Position numbers and translations under genes: made by a program. A model generated the notes under the pieces. It was given only the letters and a program-made list of their open reading frames with translations, did no database searches and was not told the DNA's origin. Shown here piece by piece: positions 13,573 through 21,633 of a stretch of 45,547 bases of DNA. Position 1 is the first letter of the stretch. The number at the start of each line of letters is the position of its first letter. This DNA is from Candidatus Woesearchaeota archaeon (GTDB lineage Archaea; Nanobdellota; Nanobdellia; Woesearchaeales; CG1-02-33-12): NCBI GenBank assembly GCA_018399355.1, contig JAGYOA010000002.1, forward strand, positions 1 to 45,547. Reading direction: 5' to 3'.

Positions 13573-13619
13573 AAATCTTTCTGAATTGAACATAATAAAA
13601 TTAATCTGTTAAAAGTATA

Positions 13620-13666
13620 TTACAAGCATTTTCTGGGCGTGGCCATTAACTTTAATGAAGGGCTTG
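13620..13666. repeat. Left copy of island-flanking direct repeat (att-like): an orphan, diverged duplicate of the 3' end of the radical-SAM gene
   Basis: 13620-13644 is identical to 20559-20583 (ttacaagcattttctgggcgtggcc). Counting the 46 aligned positions from 13621/20560, 41 are identical. The minus-strand translation NKPFIKVNGHAQKMLVIYF* mirrors the true C-terminus NKAKPFIKVDGHAQKMLVT*. Confidence 0.85.
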
Positions 13667-14749
13667 TTAAATAAACCTTTCTTTAAACGTTTCAAGATAG
13701 GTTAGAAGCAAAGGCAATAGTATTGGGCCAACAAAAATTCCAATAATGCCAAACATGCTTGCACCGCCTATAACTCCTATAATGACAAGTACTGGGCTTA
13801 CATTAGCCTTTGCCTTCACTATTTTAGCAAGCAAGATATTGTCAATCGTAGATATTATGAAAATACCGTAAAGCAATAAACCTATTCCTTTGCCCAAAAT
13901 CCAATAATTCTGCGAAAAATAGCCGCTTAAAATCAGATATAACGAAGCAGGAACCCATATGATAGACGTTCCAAGAAAAGGTATCAAAGCAAAGAAAGCT
14001 ATCAAAACTCCTGATAAAAGTGCAAAAGGAACACCGAATATGTAAAAACCTATAGCCCCGACAATTCCCTGGACTATTGCAACAAATAATTGTGCATAAA
14101 TTACAGTATGGGCAATATTTTCAAATTCAACAACAAGCCTTTTTTTTGTTTTGGATGTCATTGGAAGTATGTTGCCTATTTTTTTTAATATTTCATTATT
14201 ATCTTTTAGAATATAATATGTTATGACTATTGTAAGAAAAATTTGTGCTATTATAAGAGGAATACTTAAGATAATCTTTTTAATCTTCTCTTCTATCACT
14301 GGCAGATATATCTGCAGCTGTGTGTCAATACCATACCTTGATAAGTAATCTAAACTGAATTTTTCAGCTTGGTTAACAAGTGAACATACCGTTGACTCTT
14401 CGCTATTGCATGCGAATCCAAATAATGCTCCTTTTGCAACTGTATTTGATAACGAATTATAGAAATAATACCCTTGTTGTCCAATTCCGACTACTAAAAA
14501 AGTGAAGGGAATTAATATAAGAATTATAACAATTAATAAAGAAAGAATAATTGAAACAGATTCATTTGGTATCTTTTTTCTTATCTTTCTGCAGACAGGA
14601 AAAGAAATATATGCCAGAAGGGCGCTGCCTAAAATCATAATTATCACTGGCTGGATAAGTTTAAAAAATAGAAACAAAACTATTATGAAAAAGATAAATG
14701 GAACTATTCTTTGATATTGATTATTATTGTATGGTTTATCAATTGCCAT
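13667..14749 (-). CDS. AI-2E family transporter (PerM/UPF0118)
   Basis: 360 aa, about 8 TM. The topology and the GLLLYGIFIISTIDNILLAKIV and GVIGGASMFGIIGIFVGPILL segments are typical of the AI-2E/PerM family. Confidence 0.75.
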   Translation of the reverse strand: MAIDKPYNNNQYQRIVPFIFFIIVLFLFFKLIQPVIIMILGSALLAYISFPVCRKIRKKIPNESVSIILSLLIVIILILIPFTFLVVGIGQQGYYFYNSLSNTVAKGALFGFACNSEESTVCSLVNQAEKFSLDYLSRYGIDTQLQIYLPVIEEKIKKIILSIPLIIAQIFLTIVITYYILKDNNEILKKIGNILPMTSKTKKRLVVEFENIAHTVIYAQLFVAIVQGIVGAIGFYIFGVPFALLSGVLIAFFALIPFLGTSIIWVPASLYLILSGYFSQNYWILGKGIGLLLYGIFIISTIDNILLAKIVKAKANVSPVLVIIGVIGGASMFGIIGIFVGPILLPLLLTYLETFKERFI

Positions 14750-14835
14750 TGTATAAGATAAGTAATATTATTATTTATATATTTGCATACATCATTGTAT
14801 TTATAATAACAGATCAGAGGGTGTTATTTATCAGT

Positions 14836-15966
14836 TCATTTAACTGGCAACTCTAAATCAAAATGAAAATCCTTTTCCTTAAATAGTTTAATGCATGAAT
14901 CAACAACCTTAGCGTCGTAAAGTATGCCCCTATTCATCTGCAGTTCATCTAGTGCTTTATCGACTCCAAGAGCGGCCCTGTAAGGCCTATGGCTTGACAT
15001 TGCCTCAACCACATCTGCAACAGAAATTATTTTTGCTTCAGCCAGAGTTTGGCTACCTTTTAATCCTCTAGGATATCCTGACCCGTCAATTCGTTCGTGA
15101 TGCTGGTAAACAATATCTGCAATAGGCCATGGAAAATCAATATTCTTAAGAATATCATAAGAAGCCTGAACATGAGTCTTTATCAATGCATATTCAATAT
15201 CTGAAAGTTTTCCTGGTTTAGAAAGGATTTCTGATGGAATATGTATTTTTCCTAAATCATGTACAATCGCAGCTGTCCTGACTAACCTAACTCGATCTGA
15301 GGAATACTCCATCTCTGAAGCTATTGCAGCCGCTAAATGTGCAACACGCCGTTGGTGCCTTCCATTATAGAGGTCTTTCGCTTCAACAGTTGAGGCAAGA
15401 GCATCTACTGTAGAATATAATGATTTTTCAAGATCCTTGTGGCTACGCTCAAGCATCTCTTCTGAATGTTTGCGTTTTGTGATATCCTTACAAAATCCAA
15501 GGAATTTATCGCCTGAAAGCTTTACAGCATCAACTGACATATAAAATTCATGACCATCTGCATGCCTAAAAAGATATTCTCCATTAACTTTTTTTTCTTT
15601 CGCAAGTTTGCCAAATTCGCTCAATGCTGCGTCTCTCGAACCCGGCGCAGTAACGTCCATAATAGAAAGCCCCAATAATTCTTTTTTTGTATACCCTAAA
15701 AGATTGCAAGCTGCTGGATTCACATCTATATATTCTCCCTGACTATTTGCTACAAAAATTCCATCAGGGGCATTTTCAACATAAGAACGGAATTTCTCTT
15801 CTGAGTCTAATAATCTTTGATCCACCTTTCTGCACTCGGCGATACCTCTCCTTTCCGAATCTTTCAGTCCCTTCCCTGACAGGATACGCGCAGATACTGA
15901 TTTTTGTATCTCTTCTCTTACGTCTGTAGGAATATCTTTCCTTTTCATAATCTCTTCTAAAATCAT
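14836..15966 (-). CDS. PAS-domain sensor fused to an HD-GYP phosphohydrolase domain
   Basis: The PAS segment reads EKFRSYVENAPDGIFVANSQGEYIDVNPAACNLLGYTKKELLG...CKDITKRK. The HD-GYP segment carries HDLGKIHIP and HHERIDGSGYPRGL. Confidence 0.85.
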   Translation of the reverse strand: MILEEIMKRKDIPTDVREEIQKSVSARILSGKGLKDSERRGIAECRKVDQRLLDSEEKFRSYVENAPDGIFVANSQGEYIDVNPAACNLLGYTKKELLGLSIMDVTAPGSRDAALSEFGKLAKEKKVNGEYLFRHADGHEFYMSVDAVKLSGDKFLGFCKDITKRKHSEEMLERSHKDLEKSLYSTVDALASTVEAKDLYNGRHQRRVAHLAAAIASEMEYSSDRVRLVRTAAIVHDLGKIHIPSEILSKPGKLSDIEYALIKTHVQASYDILKNIDFPWPIADIVYQHHERIDGSGYPRGLKGSQTLAEAKIISVADVVEAMSSHRPYRAALGVDKALDELQMNRGILYDAKVVDSCIKLFKEKDFHFDLELPVK

Positions 15967-16069
15967 TTGATTTCTCCAAAAATTTCTTTTCTTTTCTTTC
16001 CATCTTTTCTAATCTACTCTCATATACTGTATTATAAATTAATCTTAAATACTTTACACCCTAAAAAAC

Positions 16070-16282
16070 CTAATCTTTTGACTCCTGGCACTTATTTCTT
16101 TCATAGGTGCATTTTTCACTGCAAATGCTGCTTAAGATTCCTTCACCGCAATCATGCACGCAATCAGTATACTCGCGCTCGCATGGGTCAGTTTGCGAAA
16201 TAAAAGTACAGCCATTTACCAAGGCAAGTGATGTAAGTAAAATTACCAAACCCAAAGTTGTTATAATTGTTGAATATTTCAT
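16070..16282 (-). CDS. Small Cys-rich putative lipoprotein
   Basis: Signal peptide with a lipobox-like LVNGC. Seven further Cys follow in 45 aa. GGAGGA lies 6 nt upstream of the ATG. Confidence 0.5.
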   Translation of the reverse strand: MKYSTIITTLGLVILLTSLALVNGCTFISQTDPCEREYTDCVHDCGEGILSSICSEKCTYERNKCQESKD

Positions 16283-16340
16283 TCTTATCCTCCATTATAG
16301 TTATTTATACTTGCTTAATCGCATGTAAATGATGTTTAAT

Positions 16341-16601
16341 CTAGTTTCTTCTTCGCATCAATGTTGCTGCAAGGACTGTGCCTGCAGCCATTCCAACTCC
16401 AGCGGCAATCAATACTGACCTTTCAGGGTTTTTTTGGATGTAGCCATCAATATTTCCCTTCATTCTTGTTGCATTTTCCTTTAAGAGAGCTATTTTTTCC
16501 CTGCCACCTTCACTCATGCTTTCAGCCTTGTCCATTATATTATCAACTCCATTATGCGTTCTCTGCCTCATACTTGAGATTTTATTTGTTTCATTTTTCA
16601 T
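16341..16601 (-). CDS. DUF883 (ElaB/YqjD)-like tail-anchored protein
   Basis: 86 aa. A helical N-part is followed by IQKNPERSVLIAAGVGMAAGTVLAATLMRRRN, matching the conserved DUF883 C-terminal anchor pattern. Confidence 0.55.
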   Translation of the reverse strand: MKNETNKISSMRQRTHNGVDNIMDKAESMSEGGREKIALLKENATRMKGNIDGYIQKNPERSVLIAAGVGMAAGTVLAATLMRRRN

Positions 16602-16612
16602 TTTTCACCTTT

Positions 16613-17104
16613 CTACTCGGCATTTGTTTCTCCAGGAGATGCCGAACTAGTATCTTTCTTGTTCTCTTTATCCCCTTCGGAAAATCTATAATGCCTTGTA
16701 ATTTTTATTTTAGCTGTATCTTCAATCACATCCCCTTTTTTGTCAGGCAGTAGCCTCATGTTATGGATGTCCATTCCCTGGATCTCTATCTCAACTTTCC
16801 TGATACTTGAGTGATTTGGTGTTAATACAATCGTTTTATGCTCAGGTCCCCATTTTTTTTCGAATGTCCCAGATGTATAATTGAACTTAGACAAAGGAAT
16901 ATCTGGGAGAGTTGAAAATTCTGCCTTCAAATAGATTATGTAGTCTCCATAAGTCATTATGGGGATTGTACCTTTTCCTTCTGATTCGCTTTTCTTTTCA
17001 AATTCATTTGCCTCTTCTCTGGGTATACAGTACAAACTGTCCTCTTTGTTTATACAGCCCCTTATTTCCTTGAGCTTATTTTCATTTGATACATCGTTTT
17101 CCAT
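16613..17104 (-). CDS. Hypothetical protein (beta-rich, acidic/Ser-rich tail)
   Basis: 163-aa ORF with GGAGGCG 8 nt upstream of the ATG. No motif recognised. Confidence 0.5.
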   Translation of the reverse strand: MENDVSNENKLKEIRGCINKEDSLYCIPREEANEFEKKSESEGKGTIPIMTYGDYIIYLKAEFSTLPDIPLSKFNYTSGTFEKKWGPEHKTIVLTPNHSSIRKVEIEIQGMDIHNMRLLPDKKGDVIEDTAKIKITRHYRFSEGDKENKKDTSSASPGETNAE

Positions 17105-17135
17105 TTTTACACGCCTCCAACTTTCTTAAAAATAC

Positions 17136-17225
17136 CTAAAAAATCAACATTAAAACCACTATCACTACTACAACTAATCCAATAAATCCAAGTATTCCTC
17201 CTTTGTTGTTATTGATAATTTTCAT
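17136..17225 (-). CDS. 29-aa single-TM micropeptide
   Basis: Not in the ORF track (under 60 aa). Sequence MKIINNNKGGILGFIGLVVVVIVVLMLIF*, preceded by AAGGAGGTGA 5 nt upstream of the ATG. Confidence 0.45.
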   Translation of the reverse strand: MKIINNNKGGILGFIGLVVVVIVVLMLIF

Positions 17226-17271
17226 GGTTTTCACCTCCTTATCATTTAATTAAATTATTTTTTGCTCAACC

Positions 17272-17601
17272 TTAAAGTGGTCCGGTAATGGTTGGCAGCA
17301 CCCAACTGACAATTGATGCAAAAATCCATACAACAATAGCTACAACCAAAGCTTTCAGCCAGCCCATACTATATAGGGTGCCAAGAGCAATAAGCCAGGC
17401 TATGCCTCCAATCACTGAAGCTATCCAACCTACTCCCAGGAAATATGATACAGTCGCAAATATTATTGCACCGATAAGTGCAGCCATTATTGCTGTGCCA
17501 AATCCCTCCTTTTCTCCAAACAGTTTTGTAGCCAGATAGATAATAATTCCTGATATGACCAAACTTATCAAAAATCCTATTAATGCTTCTAAAAATGCCA
17601 T
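17272..17601 (-). CDS. 4-TM membrane protein, phage-holin-family-4 / YvlD (DUF360)-like
   Basis: 109 aa. The GFGTAIMAALIGAIIF and GWLKALVVAIVVWIFASIVSWVL segments resemble the twice-repeated G-F-W-x-A motif of DUF360 proteins. AAGGAGGTG lies upstream of the ATG. Confidence 0.45.
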   Translation of the reverse strand: MAFLEALIGFLISLVISGIIIYLATKLFGEKEGFGTAIMAALIGAIIFATVSYFLGVGWIASVIGGIAWLIALGTLYSMGWLKALVVAIVVWIFASIVSWVLPTITGPL

Positions 17602-17702
17602 AAATGAACACCTCCTTTCTTCAATTTTTTAATCAATCATTTTCTCACAATGGAAAAAAATATAATCCATTGTGAAGCAATAAATCTTCTACAATGAAAC
17701 AT

Positions 17703-17822
17703 TTAAGTTTTCATTATTTTCTTTCCAACAGGCCTGTTTTTTACCATTCCTTTGCCACCTGCACTCTTTGCAGCCCTTTTTTTAGCTGCAGTCATTCTTC
17801 CGCCTCTACTTTTTTTTGCCAT
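17703..17822 (-). CDS. 39-aa highly basic peptide (KGG-like stress-peptide resemblance)
   Basis: Not in the ORF track. Sequence MAKKSRGGRMTAAKKRAAKSAGGKGMVKNRPVGKKIMKT*, with GGAGGTG 6 nt upstream of the ATG. Confidence 0.35.
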   Translation of the reverse strand: MAKKSRGGRMTAAKKRAAKSAGGKGMVKNRPVGKKIMKT

Positions 17823-17876
17823 TAAAAACACCTCCGTTCTTAATTATTTACTCTTATTGATTAATTAATTTCTTAT

Positions 17877-18779
17877 TTAATCAAAACATTCAATTACCTT
17901 TTGTTCAGCATCATCAAATGATTTTGCTTTATTTTTTGCATCATCTAGTGCCCTACTCCATACAGCTTTTGATATTGTATGGTCTGCATTTGGATTGTTG
18001 GTAACATCATGGCACATGTTCTTAGTAAGAACATAGACTTTTTCATCTGCAAACTTGCTACTTACCATAGCTGAACGCATAGTCTCTATCTTGGATTTGC
18101 ATTCTGGCTTGTCTGCGAGAACCGCAATCTGTTCATAATACACAATCTTTTTCTCAGCAAACCTGTATAGTGCGTGATTAATATTGTTTTCCCGTTCTAC
18201 AAAACCAGAACATAACTGATATGTGTTTGAGTATACCATTTTGTAATCTTTCAAACCAGCAACTTCCTTCTTAACATCATTGATCAGTACAACAAAGTCT
18301 TTATGGAGCTGAACCTGCTTAGCATCATCACTCAGCTGCACAGCATCATACCTGACTTCCCTTGCTTCCCTTGCGTTGGTTAACTGCAAATTAAGAGAAT
18401 CTATCTCATCAGACTGTGCATCTATATCATCAGATTGTTTCTGCGTGGCCATATAACCCCAAACAGAGCCAGCCAGCAAAAGGACAATCAAACCAACAAT
18501 TACTACCAGTCCAATAGAATCTGCAGAATCTCTTTTTCTATTAACTTCTTCTGCCCTATTGGTGCTTCTTCGTCTCTGAGCATCCATCAATACATCATCT
18601 CTTCTGCCTTTTGCTGCAACCCTGTTATCTGCTTTCAATCCTTCATTCCTGCCTTTTGCTGCAACTCTTGCATCCGCTCTTTTGTCAGCTGCTTCTCTTC
18701 TATCAGCAACTCTTTCCCTTTCTGCTATCCTCTCGCCAGGATAATCATTCTGTTTATGATACTCATATTTTTTTGTCAT
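17877..18779 (-). CDS. Single-pass membrane protein with basic repeat-containing N-terminus and about 190-aa external domain
   Basis: ORF 17877..18794. The ATG at 18794 is part of the SD GGAGGTGG, so the ATG at 18779 (MTKKYEYH...) is preferred. It has a tandem RVAAKGR-containing 15-aa repeat, a TM (IGLVVIVGLIVLLLAGSVWGY), and no family recognised. Confidence 0.5.
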   Translation of the reverse strand: MTKKYEYHKQNDYPGERIAERERVADRREAADKRADARVAAKGRNEGLKADNRVAAKGRRDDVLMDAQRRRSTNRAEEVNRKRDSADSIGLVVIVGLIVLLLAGSVWGYMATQKQSDDIDAQSDEIDSLNLQLTNAREAREVRYDAVQLSDDAKQVQLHKDFVVLINDVKKEVAGLKDYKMVYSNTYQLCSGFVERENNINHALYRFAEKKIVYYEQIAVLADKPECKSKIETMRSAMVSSKFADEKVYVLTKNMCHDVTNNPNADHTISKAVWSRALDDAKNKAKSFDDAEQKVIECFD

Positions 18780-18802
18780 TAAAACCACCTCCATGGTTTT
18801 GT

Positions 18803-18997
18803 TTATTCTACTGCTATTTTTCTTTTTTTACTAGTAAATTCACGGTAATATTGACCATTGACTGATTTTTTACAATAAGGACATACGAGCGTTAGACCCA
18901 CTAATGCAGGGCTTGTTATTTTTTTGTGGCAATGATTACATATGATTGTTTCCATCTTGTTCTTGAGTATTTTTTTTGATTTTGCCATTTTTATCAT
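18803..18997 (-). CDS. Small zinc-ribbon protein
   Basis: CNHC-x17-CPYC arrangement in 64 aa. The true start could be the second Met (MAKSKK). Confidence 0.45.
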   Translation of the reverse strand: MIKMAKSKKILKNKMETIICNHCHKKITSPALVGLTLVCPYCKKSVNGQYYREFTSKKRKIAVE

Positions 18998-19018
18998 CTC
19001 TTTATTGTTATATCTTAA

Positions 19019-19177
19019 TTATTGTAATCTATGTAAGTGTGTCAGCCGGCTTTTGATATTTGCGCGCTCTGCCTGCTCTTTTATCATACGGTTTTCAATT
19101 TTTCCTAAGGCATGCTCCCAATAAATTATCCTTCTGGTTAATTCATTATTATTGATATCTTCCATGATATTTTCCAT
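19019..19177 (-). CDS. 52-aa helical micro-ORF
   Basis: Not in the ORF track. Sequence MENIMEDINNNELTRRIIYWEHALGKIENRMIKEQAERANIKSRLTHLHRLQ*, with AAGGGGGGAT upstream of the ATG. Confidence 0.3.
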   Translation of the reverse strand: MENIMEDINNNELTRRIIYWEHALGKIENRMIKEQAERANIKSRLTHLHRLQ

Positions 19178-19716
19178 TTAGATCCCCCCTTAACCTAAAC
19201 TATAGATGTTGTAGTAAAAGATTTATTCTTCATAAAAATGCAGCTTACGATCTTCTATTTCCAACATAGACATCAGATCAACTTCATCTGAAGAATATAT
19301 CTTATGCTTACTATCTTCAAAAAGCAATTTTATCACCCCTTTTCCCTTTTTTGTATTTAGCTATTTAACTGATATCTACATTGAAAACACTTAACATCCA
19401 CTCTACACACTAGGACGGACTGTCTAGCATATTTCTGGATTAGGTAGTATTAATGGGCCGATACAGTTATAGCCATTAAGACCATCAAGACTACTAAAAC
19501 CAAAATGGTTGACATTTTTTTTGTATATCTCATTTTTTGCCTCAGAGCCTTCTGCTTTAATATCAATTAATAATAACATAATTGGATATTTGATTACTGC
19601 CTATCAACTACTTCCCTCTCAACCTGTATATAGTATATTCTTGAAGTTCTTATGCCCTTTGTAGATATTTTAAAGAGATTAATAGAAATCGGTTGATAAT
19701 GTTAACCTGTTGATAA

Positions 19717-19739
19717 GCAGAAAAGAGGTTATACCTCTT
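19717..19739 (-). terminator. Hairpin plus T-rich tract downstream of the Lrp-family gene
   Basis: Perfect 7-bp stem aagaggt / acctctt (19723-19729 / 19733-19739) with a 3-nt loop. On the minus strand it is followed by TTCTGC, giving the run CTCTTTTCT. Confidence 0.3.
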
Positions 19740-19759
19740 AAAGTCTTGCTGTTTGACCC

Positions 19760-20320
19760 TTAATGAGAATGATTTAGGAATAAATCTTTTGGCGAAAAGT
19801 CTTTTTTATCAATTATTTCATGCAAGATTCCAAGTGGACTATGCGAGATAATCTTTTGAACAGAAAAAGTGTATACTCCATTAATTGTAACTTCATCCGC
19901 AAACTTAGTCTGGACTTCTGAGATATACCTCTCTTTCTGGGCTATGTCTCTAAAGGCCAGTAATAAAATATGTGAAGCGTTTTCATCAGCAACTCTGTAA
20001 GCGTCAATTACATAAGGTGCTTTAGAAATCCTTTCAGAAATCTGATCGTCTGAAAAAGATTTCCACATATTAGGAGAAAGGCGAATAATCATAAGCGCCA
20101 TGATATTAATCCCTATCTTTTTAAAATCAATAATAGGAATATAACCTTTGATAATGCCGCATTTCTCTAATTTTTCCCTTATCTTAAATATTGCCTGCGG
20201 AGAAAGTTTCATGCTTTTAGCAATATCACTATCTGGAATGTTCTTCAGGTCCAGTATTTTTTTAAGAACATTTCTGTCATTCTCCGTGAGCTTAGGCAAA
20301 TCAGGATCTCTTTTTTCCAT
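19760..20320 (-). CDS. Lrp/AsnC-family transcriptional regulator
   Basis: The HTH segment is LTENDRNVLKKILDLKNIPDSDIAKSMKLSPQAIFKIREKLEKCGIIKGY, followed by a RAM-like C-domain. The ATG at 20326 lies inside the SD GGAGGATG, so the ATG at 20320 (MEKRD...) is preferred. Confidence 0.75.
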   Translation of the reverse strand: MEKRDPDLPKLTENDRNVLKKILDLKNIPDSDIAKSMKLSPQAIFKIREKLEKCGIIKGYIPIIDFKKIGINIMALMIIRLSPNMWKSFSDDQISERISKAPYVIDAYRVADENASHILLLAFRDIAQKERYISEVQTKFADEVTINGVYTFSVQKIISHSPLGILHEIIDKKDFSPKDLFLNHSH

Positions 20321-20553
20321 AAACATCCTCCAAAATTAAGCTATATATATAATCATTTAAACCTTATTAATTTTTTGTTTTTTATTTATAAGCTGCCTGT
20401 AAATCTTATTTTGGCCAAAATGTGAACTTTTTGTTTGTTTGCCTTATTTTTTCTTTCAGTTTTGTTAGTTTAGAAATACTTATCCTTCCATAGTTTATCC
20501 ACTAAAATTATTTAACATAACAAAAATTATTTTGTTAAAAGTTTTATTTATTA

Positions 20554-21633
20554 TTATGTTACAAGCATTTTCTGGGCGTGGCCGTCCACTTTAATAAAAG
20601 GCTTGGCCTTATTTATCCATGCGCCAAACTTGTGTAGTTGTTCATACTTTGTTATCTTTTTTTCCTTGAGAATTCTTTTTGCTGTTTTTGGGCCTATTCC
20701 TGGAATCCTTATTAGCTCATCATAGCTTGCTTCATTTATGTCAATCGGTTTGTCAAATTTATGCATTGCAATGGCCATCTTTGGATCTTTATTTGGCAGC
20801 ATTCCATCCTCCATAACATCATAAAATTCTTTTACACTATAATTATAGTCTCTCATAAGAAAATCAGCATTGTAAAGATGAGTTTCTCTTTTCTTTTTCT
20901 CTGGTTTTTGATTTTCAAGAGGAGTTCCTTTAACAGGGGTAAATGCAGAAAAATAAACTCTTCTTAGCTCAAGCTTTTTGTATTCCCAATCAGCCATTTT
21001 TAAGACATCCTTATCAGTTGATATTTTGTTTAAAATTATCTGTGTTGTCTGTCCTGAACCAAGGTTCATTCTTGATATCCATGCCTGCCTTTTCAAAAGG
21101 TCATTTTTGTAATCCTTGCACGTGCTTATCTCAGAAAGAGAGCTTTTGTTTGGTGATTCTATATTGACACTTAATCTGTTTGAAATTTCAGATGCCTGCT
21201 TTACAAGGTCATAAGAAGTTCCAGGAAGAATCTTGAAATGAACATAGCCATGAAACTTATACTTGAATCTTAAAATCCTTACAGCATCAAGCATCTTTTC
21301 AGTTATAATATCAGGCTCTTTTGAAACAGCAGAACTGAGAAAAAGTCCTTCTACAGCAAGATTTTTTCTTAAATAATCAAATAAGGAAGCAAGCTCTTCT
21401 GGCTCATAATCTGCTTTTCTTTTTTTGCAATGCGTTGAATTCTCACAGTACTTACAGTCAAAAGAGCAGCTGTTTTCCATTAATGTTTTGAAAATTCTGC
21501 ATGTTTTGTGCTCTGCCTTTGCATAATATATCCCTCCGAGGCCCTGCTTTACAGTTACCTCGCACATTTTAGGCCCGCAACTGTCATAATGGCCAGCTTT
21601 TCCGAGAATTCTTGCCTTTTCAAGAGTATTCAT
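20554..21633 (-). CDS. Radical SAM protein with C-terminal helix-hairpin-helix (putative DNA modification/repair radical SAM family)
   Basis: Has the CSFDCKYC (CxxxCxxC) cluster, the N-terminus LEKARILGKAGHYDSCGP, and a C-terminal HhH (YDELIRIPGIGPKTAKRIL). This architecture matches the TIGR03916-type family as I remember it. Confidence 0.75.
   Translation of the reverse strand: MNTLEKARILGKAGHYDSCGPKMCEVTVKQGLGGIYYAKAEHKTCRIFKTLMENSCSFDCKYCENSTHCKKRKADYEPEELASLFDYLRKNLAVEGLFLSSAVSKEPDIITEKMLDAVRILRFKYKFHGYVHFKILPGTSYDLVKQASEISNRLSVNIESPNKSSLSEISTCKDYKNDLLKRQAWISRMNLGSGQTTQIILNKISTDKDVLKMADWEYKKLELRRVYFSAFTPVKGTPLENQKPEKKKRETHLYNADFLMRDYNYSVKEFYDVMEDGMLPNKDPKMAIAMHKFDKPIDINEASYDELIRIPGIGPKTAKRILKEKKITKYEQLHKFGAWINKAKPFIKVDGHAQKMLVT
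20559..20605. repeat. Right copy of island-flanking direct repeat (att-like), forming the functional 3' end of the radical-SAM gene
   Basis: See the left copy. It encodes ...KPFIKVDGHAQKMLVT* on the minus strand. Confidence 0.85.

Follow-up and report, generated by a model that had tools for sequence, protein, structure and literature searches.

In a 45,547-nt stretch of a Candidatus Woesearchaeota genome (contig JAGYOA010000002.1, positions 1 to 45,547; the whole stretch is called the window below), an array of small minus-strand genes headed by a gene for a divergent Lrp/AsnC-family regulator was analysed. The reading favoured here, to which a probability of about one half is given, is that the locus is an Lrp-controlled, mobile starvation or envelope-stress membrane module of Woese- and Pacearchaeal DPANN archaea. 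This reading was chosen because the array has an Lrp/AsnC head, encodes a homologue of the Escherichia coli protein YqjD and has companions of the type found in bacterial stress regulons. The source genome has a size of 918 kb, a completeness of 97.5% and a GC content of approximately 32%, and the SecY, uS5 and uL3 proteins encoded in the window are of the archaeal type.

The genes of the array are separated by spacers of 11-101 nt. The eleven minus-strand open reading frames (ORFs) listed in a preliminary description of this DNA were all found at, or within a few codons of, the positions given there, and the hairpin with a T-tract that it had placed behind the Lrp gene was located at 19739-19723. 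The features of the locus are as follows (aa, amino acids; TM, transmembrane segment).

19760-20326, minus strand: divergent Lrp/AsnC-family regulator, 188 aa, with a C-terminal extension of about 45 aa
19723-19739, minus strand: hairpin and T-rich tract, a terminator-like end of the Lrp gene (7-bp stem, 3 GC pairs, tail TTCTGCTTAT)
19606-19721, minus strand: conserved non-coding element of about 100 nt, the probable promoter/operator of the array
19223-19327 (or to 19336), minus strand: acidic microprotein, 34 or 37 aa, TTG start preceded by the Shine-Dalgarno motif GGGGTGAT
19019-19177, minus strand: helical microprotein, 52 aa
18803-18997, minus strand: zinc-ribbon microprotein, CxxC..CPxC
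17877-18794, minus strand: bitopic (single-pass) membrane protein, 305 aa
17703-17822, minus strand: extremely basic peptide, 39 aa
17272-17601, minus strand: 4-TM protein of an unnamed archaeal family, 109 aa
17136-17225 (or to 17234), minus strand: single-TM peptide, 29 or 32 aa
16613-17104, minus strand: soluble 163-aa protein, called u163 here
16341-16601, minus strand: tail-anchored YqjD/ElaB-like (DUF883-like) protein, 86 aa
16070-16282, minus strand: Cys-rich lipobox protein, 70 aa
14836-15966, minus strand: PAS and HD-GYP-type HD protein (Pfam HD_5, E 7e-35, plus PAS)
13667-14749, minus strand: AI-2E family transporter (Pfam AI-2E_transport, E 2.7e-42)
13609-13666: distal copy of a 58-nt direct repeat, reading as a pseudo C-terminus of a radical-SAM protein
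20548-20605: proximal copy of the repeat, overlapping the true 3' end of the radical-SAM gene (20554-21633)

Homologues of every window ORF were sought by tblastn in 5 + 21 + 37 loci, the last group being Lrp-anchored, and gene content was compared among 22 u163-anchored and 37 Lrp-anchored loci. The array neighbourhood was present in dozens of Woese- and Pacearchaeal (Nanoarchaeota) genomes, the related records being labelled Woesearchaeota, Pacearchaeota, Nanoarchaeota or Nanobdellota. In 20 of the 22 u163-anchored loci, at least one other array member lay on the same strand within 8 kb. The most recurrent companions of u163 in these 22 loci were DUF1328 and PLDc_N proteins (12 loci each), the basic peptide (11) and the AI-2E transporter (11, downstream and on the same strand), followed by the DUF883-like gene (9), the 4-TM protein and a 113-aa 2-TM protein (8 each), Lrp and the 29-aa peptide (7 each), the bitopic protein (4) and the lipoprotein (2). 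The usual gene order, in which brackets mark members that are often absent, was Lrp, (acidic, 52-aa), zinc ribbon, (bitopic), (DUF1328), (126-aa 2-TM), basic peptide, 4-TM, (PLDc_N), (29-aa), u163, (Gly-rich 46-aa), (113-aa 2-TM), DUF883-like, (lipoprotein), AI-2E transporter. DUF1328 and PLDc_N were matched above the Pfam threshold in sister arrays, and SHOCT, PRC-barrel, SIMPL, DUF4332, DUF5661, DUF4382 and large Ice_binding-like secreted proteins were recognised in other arrays. The association was also seen at the genome level: the Lrp type is present in 10 of the 11 genomes that have a close DUF883 orthologue, compared with a background of 23%, and in all seven u163 genomes present in both samples.

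Judging from its gene content, the window array is a reduced version of this neighbourhood. The 113-aa 2-TM and DUF1328 query proteins had no match in this genome, and the PLDc_N query gave only a marginal one (E 0.004) inside a 337-aa frame. In a genome of the same genus (G001), a Gly-rich 46-aa gene and the 113-aa gene lie between u163 and the DUF883-like gene. At the other end, arrays often finish with the AI-2E transporter gene. In the window alone, a PAS/HD-GYP gene stands between this gene and the lipoprotein gene, and no homologue of this gene was found at that position in the other arrays that have an AI-2E gene in the fetched stretch. Since the transporter gene follows the array directly in G012 and other genomes, the PAS/HD-GYP gene looks like a lineage-specific insertion. 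One sister locus (L017, JAHYJW010000002.1), a 147-kb contig labelled Patescibacteria, carries u163, DUF1328 and two PLDc_N genes. Because it also encodes a TrmB-like regulator, this contig is probably archaeal and mis-binned or mislabelled, and it was not taken as evidence of transfer between domains.

The smallest ORFs of the array, including four of less than 60 aa, are genes that, to judge from their substitution patterns, are under purifying selection. Homologues of each array ORF keep the same order and strand in other genomes, and the ratio of nonsynonymous to synonymous substitution rates (dN/dS), calculated pairwise by the Nei-Gojobori method against several orthologues, was 0.05-0.35 in nearly all pairs, micro-ORFs included. 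Distinct homologues numbered 20 for the zinc ribbon, 18 for the basic peptide, 9 for the 29-aa TM peptide, 4 each for the 34-aa and 52-aa peptides and 2 for the lipoprotein. Strong Shine-Dalgarno-like motifs (GGAGGTG, GGGGTGAT and GGGGGGAT) precede those starts that were readable, and the zinc-ribbon, bitopic and basic-peptide genes have nearly identical translation-initiation regions. For the 34-aa acidic peptide, homologues were found at the same position in G001, G117, G134 and L034 (dN/dS 0.09-0.52), and a Pfam search with it gave no match. The homologues of the 52-aa peptide (G001, G134, L034 and L091; dN/dS 0.13-0.29) have the motif RIGYW..L.K.E..M.K.QSE in common, and all nine of the 29-aa peptide have K.GG(I/L)..(F/L)IG.VVV, with dN/dS mostly 0.15-0.25. 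The Cys-rich lipobox protein retains every cysteine in G012 (67% identity) and L034 (59%), at a dN/dS of 0.2.

Therefore, the suggestion of the preliminary description that the ORFs of less than 60 aa are genes was borne out by homologues elsewhere and by dN/dS values well below 1. Its treatment of the genes as one unit likewise agrees with these values, with co-occurrence retained in more than 30 loci and with the lack of any component from a housekeeping family. The "full gene set" of which it had spoken was not recovered as a fixed set, the array being modular and only sub-sets of it recurring. As composition varies by genome, the members are likelier to be co-regulated, additive stress proteins than parts of one fixed complex.

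The protein at the head of the array is, by domain architecture and alignment, a divergent member of the Lrp/AsnC family. It has a winged helix-turn-helix (HTH) followed by an alpha-beta effector (RAM) domain. All 16 of its PDB matches were Lrp/AsnC proteins, with both domains covered, and residues 12-164 aligned to full-length Lrp/AsnC chains (3i4p, 2cfx and 2efn). The NCBIfam AsnC/Lrp/LrpA models matched residues 10-138 at E values of 5e-8 to 3e-5, with a best score of 33 bits, which is far under the curated cut-offs of 180-250. In Pfam, no AsnC_trans_reg match was obtained, and only MarR and HTH_24 were matched, below threshold. The family was matched in 58 of 251 genomes of the order, a tally that takes in three unpublished genomes (G216, G220 and G143) used for that tally alone, and a metagenome scan with the protein gave 4 short contigs only.

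It was also found that the Lrp-type regulator and the zinc ribbon form, on the evidence of gene order, a conserved pair. In 29 of the 37 Lrp-anchored loci, the Lrp-type gene is immediately followed by the zinc-ribbon gene; in 3 more, the zinc-ribbon gene adjoins it upstream. The pair is kept even in paralogues of 45-57% identity, behind which genes unrelated to the array are found. It is mainly where Lrp is at least 60% identical that the membrane array follows. Pfam recognises the zinc ribbon by generic zinc-ribbon models only, and no description of a pair of Lrp/AsnC and a zinc-ribbon microprotein was found in the literature. Among the paralogues at L092-L101, the pair is often trailed by very acidic ORFs of 37-58 aa with a composition like that of the 34-aa acidic peptide, and Lrp, zinc ribbon and acidic ORF may be a conserved regulator trio. 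At L077 and L078 (G063 and G185), two tandem copies of the Lrp-type gene, 57-64% identical, precede the zinc ribbon.

The non-coding element at 19606-19721 is probably the promoter/operator of the array. By nhmmer, it was located directly downstream of the Lrp gene at 15 non-redundant sites in at least 13 genomes or metagenomes. It has a TATA-like TTTAAAATA and, about 20 nt further on, an invariant TAGAACTTC. In the same comparisons, synonymous sites of the adjoining Lrp gene were heavily diverged (synonymous divergence, dS, up to about 1.2). In G231, u163 has been displaced to a position ahead of the zinc-ribbon gene, and the element recurs as a second copy just before the latter. Because RNAalifold predicts no consensus RNA structure for the element, a DNA-level signal is likelier; a structured RNA leader was rejected on this ground and because no Rfam family is present in the window. 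The Lrp-type protein may bind this putative operator. Between the element and the acidic-peptide gene, at 19337-19605 (minus strand), the window and G001 have an extra leader of about 230 nt with overlapping 51-aa and 38-aa ORFs inside, and G117 and G134 are without it.

The 86-aa protein is a real homologue of YqjD that scores below the Pfam threshold. A profile of 11 sequences aligned to YqjD of E. coli K-12 (hhalign 93.8%, E 1.7e-7, 65 columns), and the alignment spans the N-domain helix and the anchor. Thus, the preliminary assignment to DUF883 (ElaB/YqjD-like) stands as regards homology to YqjD; as a Pfam match it does not, since DUF883_C gave 18.5 bits against a gathering threshold of 27 (16.4-21.8 bits in three relatives) and the DUF883 N-domain model had no match. 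Tail anchors of DUF883 proteins are characterised by a proline, a glycine zipper, terminal arginines and a tryptophan after the proline (10.1101/2024.08.16.608256). The tail of the window protein has the proline, a glycine zipper and a C-terminal Arg cluster (its sequence ends ..KNPERSVLIAAGVGMAAGTVLAATLMRRRN), and P59, G68, G70 and G74 are invariant in 11 homologues. The tryptophan directly after the proline is absent, E or K standing there in all 11 archaeal sequences.

YqjD/ElaB-type tail-anchored proteins are common in this DPANN order, the profile matching 56 of the 251 genomes sampled. A survey based on Pfam and InterPro recorded archaeal DUF883 in three Methanocalculus species only (10.1101/2024.08.16.608256). 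A 2026 survey of archaeal hibernation factors looked for ElaB/YqjD by COG/Pfam profiles or BLASTp (PMC13324472). No paper tying DUF883 to DPANN lineages was found in the literature. The 113-aa 2-TM gene adjoins the DUF883-like gene in 8 u163-anchored and several Lrp-anchored loci; its product was considered as a YqjE homologue and rejected, as hhalign against E. coli YqjE gave only 0.3%. Elsewhere in this genome, outside the island, contig C67 (L114:3030-3713, minus strand) has a second DUF883-like gene, encoding 102 aa with a Lys-rich N-domain and followed directly by a 118-aa 2-TM gene, which is the order of E. coli yqjD-yqjE.

The block as a whole shows features of a mobile island. A 58-nt direct repeat brackets 13667-20547 (6.9 kb), with the AI-2E, PAS/HD-GYP, array and Lrp genes inside. 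The two copies are 84-88% identical (blastn E 5e-14, 13609-13666 against 20548-20605), and the distal one translates to KPFIKVNGHAQKMLV, as compared with the genuine radical-SAM C-terminus KPFIKVDGHAQKMLVT. Such a duplication of the 3' end of the radical-SAM/HhH protein gene is an att-like signature. Similarity was discordant between the block and core genes: in G117 and G030, which belong to other families, Lrp is 79-83% identical to the window protein, SecY 63-67% and uL3 48-50%, and in G012, of the same family, Lrp is 74% and SecY 82% identical (uL3 was not found). The distribution of u163 is patchy: the gene was detected in 12 of the 401 genomes of the class, of which four belong to other orders, and its identity was 69-83% in every case. 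When two genomes of the genus were compared, dS was 0.21-0.46 for the array genes from Lrp to the 29-aa peptide, 0.66 for u163 and 0.59-1.16 for the flanking radical-SAM, 171-aa and nitroreductase genes. Taken together, the repeat, the discordant identities, the patchy u163 and the split in dS indicate that the block has repeatedly been exchanged horizontally or recombined. The term "island" used in the preliminary description is therefore justified in this genus by the flanking repeat and the discordant similarity.

The comparisons show a conserved, modular and co-directional array of small membrane-associated proteins, headed by a regulator and passed between genomes; its role is inferred. 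A function in starvation or envelope stress would be fulfilled as follows. Lrp/AsnC regulators in archaea are typically nutrient-responsive. Like other Lrp/AsnC proteins, the Lrp-type protein would sense the supply of amino acids or nutrients, possibly together with the zinc ribbon and the two microproteins, and would turn the array on or off by way of the conserved element. The array proteins would act at the membrane, stabilising or remodelling it and quieting the cell in famine or envelope stress. The YqjD-like protein, the 39-aa basic peptide, the basic-repeat N-domain of the bitopic protein and u163 would face the cytoplasm, the 4-TM protein and the 29-aa peptide would lie within the membrane, and a four-helix-bundle ectodomain and the Cys-rich lipoprotein would be outside. 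PLDc_N, SHOCT, PRC-barrel and SIMPL are families of bacterial stress regulons. The DUF1328 protein YtjA is small and controlled by sigma-S (PMC5437024), and YqjD, ElaB and YgaM of E. coli are stationary-phase, C-tail-anchored membrane proteins that inactivate ribosomes (10.1101/2024.08.16.608256). The YqjD-like protein may, by analogy with these bacterial relatives, tether and silence ribosomes. On the whole, the Lrp head, the resemblance to YqjD/ElaB and the envelope or stationary-phase reading proposed earlier hold up, sister arrays adding DUF1328, PLDc_N, SHOCT, PRC-barrel and SIMPL members.

Several points weigh against this interpretation. Most members (u163, the basic peptide, the 4-TM and bitopic proteins and the microproteins) are without a characterised relative, so that the argument for "stress" depends on a handful of DUF families of which little is itself established functionally. 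The similarity to YqjD is sub-threshold in Pfam and the conserved tryptophan is missing, and the window is without YqjE-like, DUF1328 and PLDc_N genes. As to mobility, no integrase or recombinase was found among the gene domains in 13667-20547, six other loci lacked flanking repeats, and an empty integration site was not found in relatives of the family. Finally, ice-binding-like surface proteins and swapped ectodomains in sister arrays point equally to a role at the surface or in interaction.

A more specific version of the favoured reading was also considered, namely that the locus is a mobile dormancy kit, a membrane-bound, horizontally spread hibernation system that silences ribosomes or nucleic acids and is unrelated to HibA, Dri and aRDF. 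This is a possibility of the doubtful kind. In famine, which for an episymbiont might be loss of the host, the Lrp and zinc-ribbon switch would turn on a membrane platform, and the YqjD-like anchor would, with the basic peptide and the repeat-bearing basic N-domain of the bitopic protein, trap ribosomes or nucleic acids there and silence them.

Among the micro-ORFs, constraint is strongest on the basic peptide. Its 18 homologues are 71-95% identical, with dN/dS of 0.05-0.15 and an invariant GGRM.A..RA...GG..K.R..GK. In one locus (L030:6117-6503, CAYIEN010000011.1), a 128-aa ORF consists of a DUF883_C-like glycine-zipper segment with the full basic peptide C-terminal to it, and a stand-alone copy of the peptide is encoded about 700 nt downstream. 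This fusion hints, in the manner of a Rosetta stone, that the DUF883-like protein and the basic peptide work together. A PDB search with the peptide gave no match. Its assignment as a KGG-repeat stress motif was rejected, Pfam being empty even at E 10, and kinship with the RVAAKGR repeats of the bitopic protein was rejected by hhalign with a profile diluted by one long fused row.

For u163, 383 clusters were found at 76-86% identity with no Pfam domain, and only 28 clusters at the 50% level. An AlphaFold2 (AF2) model from a 21-sequence alignment had a pLDDT of 54, a wide VIA-align search gave a best Z of 4.2, and ESM Atlas gave nothing above 0.88; with such a poor model and no fold match, no fold can be assigned. 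A match to a TPR protein in the representative search was dismissed as compositional, since Pfam shows TPR repeats only.

The start of the bitopic protein is likely to be the second ATG, at 18779, which is preceded by GGAGGTG and at which the homologues start too. Its 53 homologues have an invariant N-terminal YEYHK.NDYPGER, 1-5 ARVAxKGR repeats and one TM. Throughout the family, the N-terminal half is kept and the ectodomain alternates between a four-helix bundle with conserved cysteines and a Big_5 Ig-like domain. Residues 150-300 of the window protein were modelled by AF2 as all helical with a pLDDT of 75-94. An attempt to assign the fold of this ectodomain was abandoned, as only generic or de novo helical bundles were matched, with Z up to 14.4, which is in the range expected for helical models.

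Such swapping of the ectodomain over a conserved N-terminal half is what would be expected of a cell-surface or host-interaction module of an episymbiont, in which the bitopic protein, the lipoprotein and ice-binding-like proteins would make contact and the small proteins would assist in assembly or signalling. The Cys-rich lipoprotein and the patchy, mobile distribution fit this explanation, as do the large secreted Ice_binding-like proteins (PF11999), which are inserted in four arrays (L034, L071, L072 and L077) and, in one more case, encoded downstream of an Lrp and zinc-ribbon paralogue (L102:8975-7500 region). However, the most recurrent members are tiny and face the cytoplasm or lie in the membrane, whereas the bitopic protein (4 of 22) and the lipoprotein (2 of 22) are among the least recurrent in the u163 loci, and the dN/dS of the bitopic protein (0.14-0.18) gives no sign of diversifying selection. 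The host-interaction role put forward in the preliminary description is thus retained as the main rival to the stress module and is itself unlikely.

It was further considered that the array might consist of accessory subunits or regulators of the AI-2E transporter, tuning ion, pH or small-molecule export. The transporter gene lies within the repeat-flanked block here, and it is found in 11 of the 22 u163-anchored and in several Lrp-anchored loci at 54-78% identity, one cut copy excepted. Yet complete arrays without the transporter in the fetched DNA exist (for example, G036 and G164), the PAS/HD-GYP gene intervenes between array and transporter in the window, and no fusion or tight overlap of the transporter with an array member was seen, which makes this explanation improbable.

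Equally improbable is the absence of any collective function, with unrelated small genes drifting and hitch-hiking on a mobile block. Composition does differ in almost every genome, the order is sometimes shuffled (G231 and G089), and two loci have u163 and no other detectable array member. Against this stand the constancy of strand and relative order in most loci examined, the common upstream regulator with its promoter-like element, the strong genome-level association with the Lrp type, and the one locus in which two members are fused.

The 4-TM protein was described earlier as holin-family-4/DUF360-like. Four hydrophobic segments in about 110 aa, a generic feature, are kept in the 15 family members compared, and a KLFGEKEGFGTA loop is conserved. 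The family comprises more than 1100 clusters at 90% identity, none with a precomputed Pfam domain. The match of the window protein to Phage_holin_4_2 was partial (residues 10-51 against model positions 63-102) and below threshold (20.8 against 28.8 bits, E 6e-4). Of the 15 members, 2 matched this model, 5 matched Yip1 and 3 matched ECF_trnsprt. In ESM Atlas, the nearest cluster was an unnamed archaeal one (0.93), the Phage_holin_4_2 cluster reaching only 0.75. The protein had no PHROG match, and no relative was found in IMG/VR. The holin-4/DUF360 assignment is therefore not supported. Nor is the proposal of a holin/antiholin lysis or membrane-toxin cassette of a mobile element: it could draw on this match, on a weak Phage_holin_3_6 match of the 113-aa neighbour in sister loci (E 5.6e-3) and on the island-like flanks, but the holin model is matched by fewer members than Yip1 or ECF-transporter models, PADLOC gives winged-helix matches to the regulator only, no lysin, capsid or integrase is present, and u163, like the 4-TM family, was not found in IMG/VR, so that such a cassette is very improbable. 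A defence or phage origin of the array was likewise disfavoured, since PADLOC and PHROGs yielded nothing meaningful and neither u163 nor the 4-TM protein had a match when IMG/VR was scanned.

The genomes of DPANN archaea are tiny and their stress biology is almost uncharacterised, so that a module of the kind proposed would offer a concrete, testable way into the question of how these organisms live through famine or separation from a host. The analysis also defined new conserved microprotein families (the 39-aa basic, 29-aa TM, 34-aa and 52-aa peptides and the zinc ribbon) and a recurrent regulatory pair of Lrp and zinc ribbon with a conserved candidate operator.

When compared with known systems, the block resembles integrative islands that insert at a gene's 3' end and bring a replacement for it, in that it has a flanking repeat, a pseudo C-terminus, a patchy spread and discordant similarity; unlike them, it is without an integrase or recombinase, flanking repeats were not seen at six other loci, and no empty site was found. 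With the archaeal feast/famine regulators (LrpA, FL11/PH1519 and LysM), the Lrp-type protein has in common the winged HTH with an effector domain and a putative target promoter behind its gene, whereas it is very divergent, is extended by about 45 aa at the C-terminus and has a zinc-ribbon partner in most loci. The general-stress regulons of bacteria (RpoS, SigB and EcfG types) are rich in small membrane and hydrophilic proteins, and the array, too, is a set of very small membrane proteins that are probably co-regulated, with DUF1328, PLDc_N, SHOCT, PRC-barrel, SIMPL and DUF883 members in related arrays. In contrast to those regulons, the array genes are clustered and mobile rather than scattered and stand under Lrp/AsnC and a zinc ribbon rather than a sigma factor, and no bacterial counterpart was found for u163, the basic peptide, the 4-TM protein or the bitopic protein.

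The closest known system is the yqjD-yqjE-yqjK stress module with the related YqjD/ElaB/YgaM proteins. The 86-aa protein resembles these in its predicted helical cytoplasmic N-domain, its glycine-zipper anchor initiated by a proline and its Arg cluster, and sister loci place a 2-TM protein beside it as in yqjD-yqjE. The 2-TM neighbour, however, is without detectable homology to YqjE, is encoded on the upstream side and not the downstream one, and does not occur in this window, and there is no YqjK in the array. Moreover, the host here is an archaeon, and the DUF883-like gene is part of a far larger array, which is headed by an Lrp-type gene and not by a sigma-S promoter. Judged by gene content, then, the array is nearest to a yqjDEK-type stress module and differs from it in domain of life, regulator, size and mobility and in being built mostly of unnamed families.

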